DNA of 64,000 bases from Lentihominibacter sp. (GCA_051882875.1 JBJESQ010000043.1:7284-71283), one strand, 5' to 3'. Counted from the first letter of the stretch, positions 25,328-33,152 are shown. Numbers and translations: made by a program. The notes: generated by a model not told the origin, from the letters alone.

Positions 25328-25357
25328 ATTATACATTATCCTGCAAAACAATGTCAA
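25328..25357 (-). promoter_or_regulatory. Sigma-A promoter TTGACA-N18-TATAAT for the ferredoxin-AOR1 operon
   Basis: Consensus hexamers lie just upstream of the aptamer. The -35 box overlaps the stop codon of the upstream lipoprotein gene. Confidence 0.75.
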
Positions 25358-25848
25358 TTGAATTCGATGCGGTTCACCATTCTTATCCAGTATGCGGAGT
25401 CGGATTCCGGAATAATAACACGGCAAGGGGCAGACTCCCTGTCCAGAGGCTCCCCGTCAATTCCGAAGGCCAGATATATATCGTGCTCCCTCAGATAGTC
25501 TCCCGTCAGCGGGACATCGTACTCGTCGATTCCATAAAATCTCAGGCTGCTGATGTCATCCTTTGACAGCCCGTACTGCTGAAGCAGGGTGCCCAGCTCC
25601 ACCCCAGTGGCTCTCACCTCTCCTATCTTGTCGCTGGTGCTGTGGGTCTTCACGGTCACGCAATCCATGGCCGCAAGCTCACCGATTGTCACCGCCGTAT
25701 CCTCCTGCTGAATGCCGCTGAGGACAATCTTCTCGTCCGCATAGCCGCTTATGTCGATATCGTCCGTCCCGCAGCCGCCCACGCAAAGGCATGCCATGCA
25801 GGCCATAATAATCCCTATTGTCAGTGTAACTGTTCTTTTAGCTTTCAT
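25354..25848 (-). CDS. Lipoprotein with an oxidoreductase molybdopterin-binding (sulfite-oxidase-like) domain
   Basis: Lipobox VGGC, followed by GVELGTLLQQYG...LRFYGIDEY...YLAFGIDGEPL...PCRVIIP...YWIRMVNRIEF, the clearest match to the Oxidored_molyb pattern in the window. Confidence 0.85.
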   Translation of the reverse strand: MKAKRTVTLTIGIIMACMACLCVGGCGTDDIDISGYADEKIVLSGIQQEDTAVTIGELAAMDCVTVKTHSTSDKIGEVRATGVELGTLLQQYGLSKDDISSLRFYGIDEYDVPLTGDYLREHDIYLAFGIDGEPLDRESAPCRVIIPESDSAYWIRMVNRIEFN

Positions 25849-25889
25849 GATGTTTCCCTTTGTCACCTGTTTACTGTTTCTGTTACCTG

Positions 25890-26204
25890 TTATTCTTCGA
25901 CTACGTAGTATTTGCCCGTTTCCGGGTCCTTGTAGACCTTGCCCATTTCCTGGAGATTGCTGTTCGCATCTATCTCTTCGGTTGCATTCTGCTCAACCCC
26001 TTCAACTTCATACTTTTTTTCAGGATTCTGAATTTCTCCCTTCTCAGTGACATCAACATTCCAGCTCATAATCAGTGCCAGAATCAAGCCACAGGCAAAA
26101 ACAAGCATCGCATCTGCCATATTTCCCAAGCCATCCATAGGGCTGAAGCTTTCGCTGCTGTGAGTTCGTCTGAGCCTGCCCTTATCTCGTATTCTCATTA
26201 CCAT
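25890..26204 (-). CDS. DUF2149-family small membrane protein
   Basis: SPMDGLGNMADAMLVFACGLILAL and MGKVYKDPETGKYY. Paralog of 12715-13035. Confidence 0.85.
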   Translation of the reverse strand: MVMRIRDKGRLRRTHSSESFSPMDGLGNMADAMLVFACGLILALIMSWNVDVTEKGEIQNPEKKYEVEGVEQNATEEIDANSNLQEMGKVYKDPETGKYYVVEE

Positions 26205-26910
26205 TTGCCTCCCGCTGCGCTTTAAGTTTCCGAGCATATGCAACGAACTGCTCCTTTGTTATTTCCTCCTCCGGTGCTTCTTCCCTGCCCTGTTCTTCAA
26301 GAACTGTTTCGAGAACTGTTTCAAGACCGATAACGTACTGCTCATACCAGCTTTTTCTGATTCCTGAAATAACGAAGCACACTGCTGCACTTATTAATCC
26401 CGCAACAGTTGTGTCGAAGGCGATGAGCATTGATCCAGACAGTGTTTTGGTATCACCCTGGCCTAATGCTATAAGCCCCGGACCCAGAGGTATCAGTGTT
26501 CCCATAAGGCCGAACATCGGTGCAACTCTTGCAATAATATCTGTGATTCTCACTATCTTGTTATAATGTGCCTCCTCATCGGCAAGGAGCTGTCTTGCTA
26601 GCGCTTCTCTTGTATCAAACGGCAAGCTGCTTCTGTTCAAAAGCTGCAGAACTGCATGTCTCTGTCTCTTAAGAAGACCGCTGTTATTTATCACATTCTT
26701 CAGTTCGTCTACAGTTTTACCCTGCATGCTGTCAATCAGTCCCGGAATATCGCCTTTGAGCTTCCTTCTCTCCGTAAACGCTTCCGCAATTATACTTCCA
26801 AGCATTATAATGGCAACTATGATCAGGATAATCAAAATTACTATTGTTGGTATCTGCAGCGAGCTGCTTATAAGCCTTAAAATATCTTTTACTGCTTCCG
26901 CCATAAACAA
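26182..26910 (-). CDS. MotA/TolQ/ExbB proton channel family protein
   Basis: APMFGLMGTLIPLGPG and AFDTTVAGL. Paralog of 13028-13807. Confidence 0.9.
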   Translation of the reverse strand: MFMAEAVKDILRLISSSLQIPTIVILIILIIVAIIMLGSIIAEAFTERRKLKGDIPGLIDSMQGKTVDELKNVINNSGLLKRQRHAVLQLLNRSSLPFDTREALARQLLADEEAHYNKIVRITDIIARVAPMFGLMGTLIPLGPGLIALGQGDTKTLSGSMLIAFDTTVAGLISAAVCFVISGIRKSWYEQYVIGLETVLETVLEEQGREEAPEEEITKEQFVAYARKLKAQREANGNENTR

Positions 26911-26922
26911 AATCCTCCAATG

Positions 26923-28299
26923 CTATTTTTCGAGATAAAATCTTCTTATACGCAATCCTGCGCCTATCGCAAACAGACCCGCGCCTATGCCTCCGGCAAT
27001 TGCTTTTGTCTTTGGTCCGTACTCTTCCGCCTTTTCCAATGCTGCCGTATTATCTGCCTTTTGGAGCTGAGATGATTCTACCGGCACCGATGAAAGCTTC
27101 ACCTGCTTCGCAGATATTGTTTCCGGCTTTTTTATGTCCACCGCCTGTTGTTTCTTGGAAATGCTCACCTTTTTCAGTGGTTTTGTGACTACTTTCTGTT
27201 CCTCTTCAGCATCATTGTAATCGAAGGATACGGCATATTCGGTTTCCTCCACAATCATGGTGCTGCTGTTGCCTTCGCCTTCCTCCATGTCGGGATTAAA
27301 GTCAGGATTTTCAACTTCCTTCTGAACAGTCTTGCCCTGAACCGTAACCGTCATCGCTGCAGTAATCCCGTTTGAAGCCTTTGCCGAAATAGTTGCTGAT
27401 CCCTCCCCGTTTATCGTGAGAAGTCCACTGCTTGACACCGAAGCTACGCTTTCATTGCTGCTGCTCCAATCAAGATCAGATTCGGTAACGGCATTGCCTC
27501 CCGTAACTGTAGCTTTAATCTGGGTCTGACTTCCTATTTTCAATTCTCCTGTTGCCGCACGTATTTTCACACCCGATATCGGTGGATATCCGCTTAACAC
27601 CAAGTCAATACCGAATACGCTTTGAACTGAATCCCAGGAACTTATATCATTTCTGCTTGTTTCAGCATTTTCAGTTAGTGCGTTTTGTCCTACACATAAC
27701 CTGTATGTACCTGAAGATGACATTTGAGATTCGTGAACATCGGCACCTGCCCGTTTCGTTCCATAATATTTTGTGGCAAGTATCGCAGGAACCTTTTGAC
27801 GGCCCTCAAGCGCGCCTTCCTTCGGAATGATTGCATCCTCATCAACTCTTTCGTATTTGAAGGTAAGCATTGGATAATAGTTCTTTGTGCCTGCCAGACT
27901 GCTCATACTAAAGGATCTCGAATATCTGCTATGTTCACCGTATCCGTCATTTGTCCGAAAATACACCGTTTCGACGGAACTTGGGTCAACTCCCGCCGCT
28001 GAAACGATATCCACCACCTTTGGACCATTGCCTATTGAATGCATTACCGTTCCCACCGAGGTAATACTGGAGTACTTATACGTTCCCGCACTCATTCCTT
28101 CAAGCGTTGATCGTGAAAATCTTGCAACCTCACGGATTTTATCTTCACGCTCACCGGCATACTGAACTCTTATTACTAATACATCCCCTGCCTTTTCAGC
28201 ATATGAAACCAGTGGCATCAGAATAAATGCCTGCATGACAGTTATTGCGATTACGCATAAAGAAGCGATTAGTCTTTTTGCTCTGCTGTTACCTCTCAA
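26923..28299 (-). CDS. Secreted protein with a sulfite-oxidase-like domain, an Ig-like (Big_2) domain and a C-terminal membrane anchor
   Basis: TTG start and signal peptide. Domain GPKVVDIVSAAG...VYFRTNDGY...VPAIL...YRLCVGQ, then Big_2 motif LDWSSSNESVASVSSSGLLT, then TM AIAGGIGAGLFAIGAGL. Confidence 0.78.
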   Translation of the reverse strand: MRGNSRAKRLIASLCVIAITVMQAFILMPLVSYAEKAGDVLVIRVQYAGEREDKIREVARFSRSTLEGMSAGTYKYSSITSVGTVMHSIGNGPKVVDIVSAAGVDPSSVETVYFRTNDGYGEHSRYSRSFSMSSLAGTKNYYPMLTFKYERVDEDAIIPKEGALEGRQKVPAILATKYYGTKRAGADVHESQMSSSGTYRLCVGQNALTENAETSRNDISSWDSVQSVFGIDLVLSGYPPISGVKIRAATGELKIGSQTQIKATVTGGNAVTESDLDWSSSNESVASVSSSGLLTINGEGSATISAKASNGITAAMTVTVQGKTVQKEVENPDFNPDMEEGEGNSSTMIVEETEYAVSFDYNDAEEEQKVVTKPLKKVSISKKQQAVDIKKPETISAKQVKLSSVPVESSQLQKADNTAALEKAEEYGPKTKAIAGGIGAGLFAIGAGLRIRRFYLEK

Positions 28300-32895: not shown

Positions 32896-32931
32896 TCTAA
32901 GTTTACCTCCCGTTAAAAAATAATAATTAAT

Positions 32932-32955
32932 AAAAAACGGTTCCAAAAGAAACCG
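32932..32955 (-). terminator. Intrinsic terminator of the riboswitch expression platform
   Basis: Minus strand CGGTTTC-TTTT-GGAACCG then U6, lying between the aptamer and the SD of the surface protein gene. Confidence 0.78.
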
Positions 32956-32976
32956 ACTTGAGCGCAATTATTCTCA

Positions 32977-33089
32977 GCAATTCCTTTCCAAAGTGCGGGA
33001 GGCACAGCTGTTTCCGGCTGCACCCTGTCGTCCTCAGACCGTAGACCACCCTCCGGATAGCCCCAAAGGTCTTTCGGCTCGAAAATGCT
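32977..33089 (-). ncRNA. Moco riboswitch (Moco RNA motif)
   Basis: Minus strand TTTCGAGCCGAAAGACC...GGTCTACGG...AGGGTGCAGCCGGAAACAGCTGTGCCTCCCGCACTTTGGAAAGG. It has the P2 stem, a P4 stem with a GAAA-containing loop, and the diagnostic CCTCCCG...TTTGGAAAGG end. There is no clear P3. Confidence 0.88.
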
Positions 33090-33118
33090 TTATTGAATTA
33101 TTGCTTGCTTGTGTGAAT

Positions 33119-33152
33119 ATTATACACCTCATCAAATGTTGTTACAACCGCA
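33119..33152 (-). promoter_or_regulatory. Promoter -10 TATAAT (33119-33124) and Crp/Fnr-type box TGTTG-N6-CCGCA (33137-33152)
   Basis: The box is nearly identical to 16628-16643 and lies directly upstream of the riboswitch. Confidence 0.55.

Follow-up and report, generated by a model that had tools for sequence, protein, structure and literature searches.

Introduction

Moco (molybdenum cofactor) riboswitches have been described ahead of oxyanion transporters of the ModABC/Tup type, biosynthesis genes and enzymes (PMC2408646, PMC3766115), and riboswitch-mediated repression of uptake by the sensed cofactor itself is the norm for B12, thiamine pyrophosphate, flavin mononucleotide and preQ1 (PMC3766115). 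Here, an operon of eight minus-strand genes with small gaps or overlaps between neighbours (P1–P8, Table 1), led by a riboswitch for Moco or its tungsten counterpart (Tuco), was analysed on a 64,000-nucleotide stretch from Lentihominibacter sp. (GCA_051882875.1 JBJESQ010000043.1:7284-71283; the whole stretch is termed the window). A FecCD permease (P2), an ABC ATPase (P3) and a Peripla_BP_2 protein (P4) are encoded together and complete the set of a type II importer; they are accompanied by a secreted surface protein (P1), a membrane-anchored protein (P5), an ExbB-like channel (P6), a DUF2149 protein (P7) and a small lipoprotein (P8). With a probability of roughly 0.6, the operon is a cofactor-repressed capture-and-import system, with the molybdenum/tungsten (Mo/W) pyranopterin cofactor as its presumed ligand.

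The core of the operon is shared with MolBC-A of H. influenzae (HI1470/71/72), a FecCD-type (type II) molybdate/tungstate importer (PMC4031551; bioRxiv 10.64898/2026.10.15.759412), with respect to permease, ATPase, class III binding protein and docking glutamates. MolBC-A comes without surface proteins, ExbB/DUF2149 pair and riboswitch, P4 lacks the ligand contacts of the binding protein MolA, and the operon persists in genomes unable to use oxyanions. P8 resembles PruR (Agrobacterium, Vibrio, Klebsiella; 7kou, 7kom, 7kp2, 7rkb), likewise a small, exported, almost pure and truncated sulfite oxidase (SUOX) fold, in which the Mo-ligating cysteine is missing and the pterin-stacking tyrosine is kept; in place of the (S/C)TSDK and the Asp of P8, PruR carries a PW motif at its hairpin tip and an Asn. 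PruR is encoded with the cyclic di-GMP enzyme DcpA and signals with monapterin, whereas P8 is part of a riboswitch-led transporter operon of Gram-positive gut anaerobes.

In the Isd relay (IsdB/H, IsdA, IsdC, IsdE-IsdF) and in BtuG/BtuH-BtuB with BtuFCD, a binding fold is similarly repeated across envelope depths, feeding a class III lipoprotein and a FecCD importer under repression by the cofactor. Isd uses the NEAT fold and sortase anchoring, whereas SUOX/PruR-like domains, an ExbB-like/DUF2149 motor and a Moco/Tuco riboswitch are found here, and the resemblance to Isd lies in the architectural logic only. The MotA/ExbB and DUF2149 pair recurs (as hmuU and hmuV) in the heme operon hmuYRSTUV of the diderm P. 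gingivalis, which includes a TonB-dependent receptor and a CobN-like protein and has neither an ABC importer nor SUOX-fold proteins. With ExbB-ExbD-TonB, the channel P6 is shared, whereas its partner P7 belongs to DUF2149 instead of Pfam ExbD; neither TonB nor a TonB-dependent receptor is encoded in the operon, and the organism belongs to a Gram-positive family.

Leader and cofactor riboswitch

The leader was searched with the Rfam covariance models. RF01055 was matched over the full model (1-135) with 45.0 bits (E 1.7e-7; gathering score 36), which was the sole above-threshold Rfam match within the window. The aptamer is followed after 10 nt by a 7-bp hairpin and U6, and further downstream by a GGGAGG ribosome-binding site and the ATG of P1 at 32895. 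Upstream, two overlapping sigma-70-like promoter candidates were found by consensus match, with 2 matches in the scan vs 0.9 expected in shuffles. The leader is predicted to act as an OFF switch, a logic that we infer. Thus far, the initial annotation of the locus, made from the sequence, had been accurate in placing a Moco riboswitch and a terminator ahead of the operon; its eight-gene parts list (Pfam matches, signal sequences), its three exported sulfite-oxidase-like domains (see below) and its flanking aldehyde ferredoxin oxidoreductase (AOR) and Mop genes were likewise found to be correct.

Columns of stem P3 in this leader were aligned at a low posterior of 0.4-0.5 with two non-canonical pairs, and in the minimum free energy fold the corresponding segment is spent on lengthening stem P2. 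Stem P3 is clearly absent from four aptamers of three relatives (G019, G014, G004), i.e. three operon leaders and the aptamer ahead of a giant surface-protein gene of G019. Because these orthologous leaders without stem P3 belong to the class that was linked to tungsten-cofactor and tungsten-enzyme genes within the same RNA family by Regulski et al. 2008 (PMC2408646), ‘Tuco’ may be a better name than ‘Moco’ for the sensed ligand.

Two tandem RF01055 matches of 27 and 33 bits, sub-threshold and both without stem P3, are located upstream of a flanking AOR gene (Table 1), and similar low-scoring aptamers without stem P3 (26-40 bits) were found at the orthologous AOR operons of relatives. Sub-threshold RF01055 matches were also obtained in two relatives (G023, 33.4 bits; G022, 29.9 bits) for the spacer between P8 and the ferredoxin-AOR operon; the orthologous spacer of the window (25165-25353) gave no RF01055 match at E ≤ 1 with Rfam.

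Exported SUOX-like domains

P8 matched Oxidored_molyb with 46 bits (Pfam cut-off 24), spanning only profile positions 41-160, and is strongly conserved, with 392 matches in gut metagenomes. Its AlphaFold2 model (pLDDT 83) was compared to the PDB using Foldseek, with PruR structures as best matches (7kp2, 7kom, 7kos, 7rkb; E 1e-8 to 6e-7; TM-score 0.68-0.79, normalised on target), followed by the sulfite dehydrogenase SorA, sulfite oxidase, nitrate reductase and YedY. In PruR, whose minimal SUOX fold is devoid of the Mo-ligating cysteine, the pterin ring is held between Tyr104 and Trp160 and hydrogen-bonded by Asn102 (PMC11194511). In a profile alignment with 7kom, the invariant D108-E-Y110 of P8 aligned on N-D-Y of PruR, and W154, located within the invariant SDSAYWIRM, may be the second stacking residue, its equivalence to W160 being judged by sequence. 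The position of the Mo-ligating cysteine of the enzymes falls on the P8 hairpin tip, where a cysteine is missing from most homologs (position 70: Ser in 15/18, Cys in 3/18).

P5 is conserved across 27 orthologs in its N-terminal 200 residues, which were modelled by AlphaFold2 with a pLDDT of 90.8. All of the top 27 PDB matches in Foldseek were SUOX-family structures (probability 0.87-1.0, mostly at least 0.9; E-values of 5e-3 to 7e-2; TM-score normalised on query 0.37-0.49), and an alignment to the P8 profile using hhalign was weak yet register-correct. P1 was connected to the P5 domain by BLASTP (8e-5), HMM (hidden Markov model) search (2e-7) and hhalign (probability 96.4%, E 1e-9). BLASTP of P8 against P1 and P5 gave no match, no SUOX domain was seen in P1 or P5 with Pfam and NCBIfam, and their kinship to SUOX emerged only through profiles and structure. 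The P5-type domain was also found in the first gene past the riboswitch in seven relatives, and in the anchored protein of a paralogous operon in the window (HMM E 3e-7; Table 1). In G019, a second, more distant P8-like protein (contig C22:10360-11058, 232 amino acids, 33.6 bits to the P8 HMM) is encoded about 15 kb upstream of the operon.

The twin-arginine translocation (Tat) pathway is the route taken by exported Moco enzymes, YedY/MsrP and SorA among them. P1, P5 and P8 have Sec-type signals, and no twin-arginine motif was seen when their sequences were read directly; they would therefore leave the cell unfolded and cofactor-free. LPXTG or sortase signals were not seen in these three proteins either, and none of the operon proteins had a Pfam match to the NEAT domain.

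The SUOX-like proteins might alternatively be extracellular sensors or enzymes, i.e. serve PruR-like signalling or be redox enzymes loaded outside, with the ABC transporter as a separate matter. PruR is indeed a signalling protein, and the three P8 homologs with Cys at the hairpin tip would suit an enzyme; most homologs, however, are without the Mo-ligating cysteine, and neither a Tat signal nor a dimerisation domain is present. Given further that no GGDEF/EAL or other signalling partner is encoded in the operon at 28 loci and that P5-P6-P7-P8 are strictly syntenic with the transporter genes in 28 species, this explanation is regarded as highly improbable.

Binding lipoprotein P4 and probable cofactor supply in G019

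An importer of the MolBC-A kind was the initial leading idea for this operon and was downgraded to a disfavoured one after the residues of P4 had been checked and the genome of G019, a relative, had been surveyed. It would take up tungstate or molybdate by the type II route, with the surface proteins concentrating or releasing the oxyanion, or its thio- or complexed forms, in the sulfidic gut. P4 belongs to the subfamily of MolA, with which it aligned over its full length (HI_1472; 3psa/3psh; E 4.6e-19, 72 bits), far above BtuF or siderophore binders and preceded among the PDB matches by two structural-genomics proteins, and molybdate transporters are classical targets of Moco riboswitches (PMC2408646), also in relatives of this family (L049, L053, L059). 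MolBC-A is furthermore an established precedent for a FecCD-type oxyanion importer (PMC4031551), and the initial annotation had thus been wrong in its premise that importers of this type never carry molybdate. The source genome of the window would be able to use oxyanions, as MoeA is present.

MolA contacts its ligand through Y114, K221, R264 and Y301 and docks via E99 and E249 (2026 preprint). Positions were transferred to P4 by phmmer alignment, using an offset of 21 for the PDB numbering of MolA that was verified on E99, E249, R264 and Y301. The docking glutamates align with E134 and E266 of P4, invariant in 27 orthologs, whereas A/S/V, T/S, S and F, all of them small or non-polar, are found in these orthologs at the four ligand-contact positions. 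P4 is thus predicted to dock like a type II binding protein, yet both cationic residues of the MolA oxyanion site appear to be gone. Moreover, ModABC already adjoins moaA in the source genome, and three exported domains of a pterin-binding fold have no obvious task in oxyanion capture.

The G019 assembly was fetched almost whole (1,878,932 bases, 40 contigs, N50 96 kb) and searched by tblastn and by HMMs derived from members of the family; the source genome served as positive control. Four AOR-family genes were found, two of them 66% identical to the AORs of the window, along with a formate dehydrogenase fusion of 1388 residues, whose open reading frame (ORF) shows CPYCGVGC and CARLCH motifs and which in its C-terminal part shares 41% identity with E. 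coli FdhF (approximate FdhF sequence as query: 41% over 684 amino acids, E 2e-167; source genome 25%, E 2e-35). MobA, MobB, FdhD, two MoaD-like genes and ThiF are present as well, and exactly one FecCD permease, which lies within the operon behind a 69-bit riboswitch. With the same searches, no MoaA, MoaC, MoaE or ModA, no MoaB/MogA, none of the three MoeA types and no ModB/TupB-type permease except PstCA were detected in G019; the sole MoCF_biosynth-like match (29 bits) resembles a weak extra match of the source genome. A ‘MoaA-like’ tblastn match on contig C18 of G019, the only radical-SAM match, was rejected as HydE, lying beside HydG and HydF.

Without MoeA and MogA, molybdate or tungstate cannot be inserted into molybdopterin (MPT), and without MoaA and MoaC no pterin is made. 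As G019 has neither MoeA/MogA nor oxyanion transporters, an oxyanion importer would therefore be useless there, and the simplest reading of its gene set, which retains the late tailoring enzymes MobA/MobB and FdhD and the cofactor-sensing riboswitch, is that the operon supplies cofactor to five cofactor-dependent enzymes. By Pfam searches, the operon likewise persists without MoeA, MogA, MoaA and MoaC in G018 and G003; MoeA-based use of oxyanions, open to the source genome, is closed to these three genomes and to five further metagenome-assembled genomes (MAGs). Import of oxyanions is a possible role in genomes having MoeA; as an explanation of the operon we consider it unlikely.

Organization and conservation of the locus

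The features of the locus are compiled in Table 1. Besides AOR and Mop-type genes, the flanks of the operon hold two MoaD-like genes, ThiF and a MobB-FdhD fusion.

Table 1. Features of the riboswitch-led operon and of other parts of the window (positions counted from the first nucleotide of the window)
Feature	Position	Strand	Details
Promoter candidates, two overlapping, sigma-70-like	33119-33183	-	consensus match only; TTGAGA-17-TATAAT, 33183-33155 (upstream); TTGTAA-17-TATAAT, 33147-33119
Moco/Tuco riboswitch aptamer RF01055	32965-33096	-	Rfam covariance model
Intrinsic terminator (expression platform)	32932-32955	-	stem CGGTTTC/GGAACCG, loop TTTT, U6; hairpin at 32955-32938
P1, secreted surface protein	31207-32895	-	signal peptide, acidic linker, SUOX-like domain ~144-229, Fn3 / Fn3_assoc
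P2, FecCD/BtuC-type permease, type II ABC importer	30163-31206	-	FecCD 287 bits
P3, ABC ATPase	29357-30151	-	ABC_tran 108 bits
P4, class III substrate-binding lipoprotein	28296-29405	-	Peripla_BP_2 88 bits, lipobox LTGC
P5, anchored protein	26923-28299	-	signal peptide, SUOX-like domain 38-240, Big_2, long linker, C-terminal transmembrane helix
P6, MotA/ExbB-family proton channel	26182-26910	-	MotA_ExbB 49 bits
P7, DUF2149 protein	25890-26243	-	single transmembrane helix carrying an Asp (NMADAML); probable start around 26204
P8, lipoprotein, minimal SUOX/PruR-like fold	25354-25866	-	lipobox VGGC; likely start 25848
AOR genes flanking the operon	22900-24729; 33639-35633		
Mop-type xanthine-dehydrogenase-family genes, flanking	36268-39222; 41994-44963		
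Tandem sub-threshold RF01055 matches	35708-35819; 35956-36067	-	upstream of the AOR gene at 33639-35633
Paralogous operon	3161-16679	-	anchored protein at 13811-15442
Metallophosphoesterase gene	1657-3024	-	Metallophos

A pattern scan of GTDB species genomes yielded 28 loci, all from gut MAGs of Anaerovoracaceae (Mogibacterium, Lentihominibacter and Crickella among them), and the gene order FecCD-ATPase-binding protein-P5-ExbB-DUF2149-P8 was identical in all of them. In many species, an operon for ferredoxin, AOR, MoaD, ThiF and MobB often comes next. At three loci only (L019-L021, from G001, G002 and G022), P7 and P8 are separated by a gap of ~2 kb with an unannotated extra gene.

RF01055 was then searched in the genomes of 24 relatives, and the genes downstream of every match were annotated. 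A riboswitch lies directly upstream of the operon, on the same strand and with only surface-protein genes between, in 11 of the 24 genomes; in 3 more, the riboswitch is followed by a surface-protein gene where the contig ends, and the operon opens another contig, and in 4 the sequence upstream of the operon is missing. Scores of orthologous leaders ranged from 56 to 69 bits. The regulon of the family also covers a second FecCD operon, ModABC-like transporters, stand-alone giant surface proteins and AOR operons.

Outside the window, the second FecCD operon was found in the source genome on contig C12:51999-60694 (minus strand) behind another RF01055 match (59 bits). It encodes a 428-amino-acid anchored protein, a 1011-amino-acid BspA-LRR/Big_2/Fn3 surface protein, a FecCD permease, an ATPase, a binding lipoprotein and a 292-amino-acid cytoplasmic protein with weak TiaS-TCKD similarity; operons of this type are under riboswitch control in G001, G009 and G015 and absent from G019. 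A third RF01055 match (66.6 bits) on contig C18:11346-12523 heads a stand-alone TiaS-TCKD-like gene (‘MRVYICVDD...’), which seems to be broken into two ORFs (123 and 183 amino acids). Under Moco/Tuco control at two loci, the uncharacterised TiaS-TCKD-like protein may be a new cofactor-related enzyme.

The paralogous operon of the window comprises genes for a binding lipoprotein, an anchored protein, an ExbB-like channel, a DUF2149 protein, a FecCD permease, an ATPase and two surface proteins (1799 and 739 amino acids); a P8-like lipoprotein is not encoded, and no riboswitch was detected for it. In the neighbouring metallophosphoesterase gene, Metallophos was the only Pfam domain, and no match to the HMMs of P8 or of the P5 N-terminal domain was obtained.

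The presence of the same parts in an operon without riboswitch bears on another explanation, by which the system would import a different large ligand (neopterin, monapterin, a folate fragment, a cobamide, heme or a siderophore), with Moco/Tuco control being regulatory only. Non-Moco pterins are bound by PruR, heme, cobamides and siderophores are the usual cargo of FecCD/Peripla_BP_2 systems, and the MotA_ExbB and DUF2149 pair is at home in the hmu heme operon, too. The riboswitch class, however, is specific to the Mo/W cofactor and not to B12 or tetrahydrofolate, the link to AOR, MoaD, ThiF and MobB genes has been conserved, and the operon is the only FecCD system of the cofactor-auxotrophic G019, so that a different ligand is considered quite improbable, more so than an oxyanion.

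Cofactor biosynthesis genes in operon-bearing genomes

The source genome (G000; 1.48 Mb, 92.5% complete) encodes MoaA, MoaC, a MoaB-MOSC fusion, ModABC and a MoeA-like protein at one locus, and two MoeA genes at another. Because moaA, moaC, moeA and modABC are retained, salvage would be supplementary here and not obligatory. In Pfam searches of 25 operon-bearing genomes, MoaA and MoaC were each present in 17, and the same 8 genomes were without MoaA, MoaC and MoeA_N.

Pfam MoaE gave only five weak matches in the 25 genomes, and a family-specific MoaE HMM was built from these five members. MoaE, which is the large subunit of MPT synthase, was detected with neither model in the source genome, one of 12 out of 17 genomes with MoaA and MoaC in which it is undetectable. 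This points either to a replacement that goes unrecognised or to a de novo pathway interrupted, in most of the family, at the step from cyclic pyranopterin monophosphate (cPMP) to MPT.

Numbers of tRNA genes were used as a rough proxy for completeness, with low counts being inconclusive since tRNAs cluster in arrays. They amounted to 36 for the source genome, 37 for G003, 42 for G018 and 46 for G019; the other five of the eight pathway-less genomes, with 19-26 tRNA genes, may be incomplete. G018 and G019 are mutual closest relatives by their operon proteins.

Proposed mechanism and weighing of the evidence

At low intracellular cofactor, the aptamer would be empty, no terminator would form and the operon would be transcribed. 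The three degenerate SUOX-fold domains would sit at increasing envelope depth, with P1 secreted or wall-associated, P5 spanning the wall from its C-terminal membrane anchor, and P8 at the membrane. Outside the cell, they may hold cofactor by its pterin moiety, whether it is free or has been shed by the proteins of other cells, and hand it inward to P4, which would dock on the BtuCD-like importer P2/P3. P6 and P7 could use the proton-motive force for release from a tight binder or for hand-off, possibly via the membrane helix of P5.

The imported species could be Tuco/Moco, metal-free molybdopterin or a precursor. That G019 has neither MoeA/MogA nor oxyanion transporters argues for the metal-loaded cofactor; retained MoaD and ThiF would fit better with import of a precursor or re-sulfuration of damaged cofactor. 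Leaders without stem P3 and synteny with AOR genes favour W over Mo as the metal.

Several points weigh against uptake of the Mo/W cofactor. Outside proteins, Moco is very labile, the anoxic state of the gut notwithstanding. With moaA, moaC, three moeA-type genes and modABC kept, the need for salvage is not obvious in the source genome, and the retention of MoaD and ThiF in G019 is unexplained by import of intact cofactor. The closest characterised relative of P4 binds molybdate/tungstate, Moco riboswitches also control ModABC-type transporters within this family (the loci L049, L053 and L059 named above), and in about 6, and at least five, of the 24 genomes surveyed the operon has no detectable riboswitch. 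The fold assignment of P5 and P1 comes with weak Foldseek E-values (5e-3), though the fold matches all fall into one family, and the residue equivalences to PruR and MolA are sequence alignments, not superpositions. Finally, G019 and the other candidate auxotrophs are MAGs, in which clustered moaA-moaC-moeA genes could vanish with one lost contig; the contiguity and tRNA count of G019, the recurrence of its pattern in the sister genome G018 and the joint absence of genes that occupy two distinct loci in the source genome speak against such a loss.

The idea of capture and import of the Mo/W cofactor, put forward in the initial annotation, was supported, as each computational check proposed there turned out favourable: the leader scored above the gathering threshold of the Rfam Moco model, homologous operons were linked to Moco/Tuco riboswitches and to AOR, MoaD, ThiF and MobB genes, and MoaA, MoaC and MoeA were absent from 8 of 25 operon-bearing genomes, verified gene by gene for G019. 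For the further-reaching proposal, that this is the first dedicated bacterial uptake of intact W/Mo cofactor and let lineages such as G018/G019 drop the pathway and the oxyanion transporters as auxotrophs, the odds are about even in our estimate.

Significance of the operon

How Mo/W cofactor moves between cells is an open question, for which the operon provides cloneable candidates for receptor, binding and transport proteins, accompanied by natural auxotrophs that predict a phenotype. Human Moco deficiency is treated with the precursor cPMP. In the literature searched, no transporter of Moco, molybdopterin or cPMP is known from any organism, and nematodes are described to take dietary Moco from bacteria. 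Microbes with tungsten oxidoreductases are assumed in a 2026 review to import tungstate via TupABC and to build the cofactor themselves (PMC13328260). The operon is probably the first bacterial uptake system for Mo/W cofactor; its design, riboswitch-controlled cofactor uptake, is known, whereas substrate class, receptor fold and accessory motor are new.

If this holds true, the SUOX fold would be newly used as an extracellular cofactor receptor, together with a proton-driven ExbB/DUF2149 motor in a monoderm envelope, which would give the DUF2149/ExbB-like pair a function in Gram-positive bacteria, and stable cofactor-binding proteins of possible practical use would be at hand. Gut communities would count Moco/Tuco among the cofactors they exchange, as a shared ‘vitamin’ like B12, auxotrophs would live on cofactor released by neighbours or from the diet, and it would be explained how anaerobes with reduced genomes keep AOR and formate dehydrogenase.

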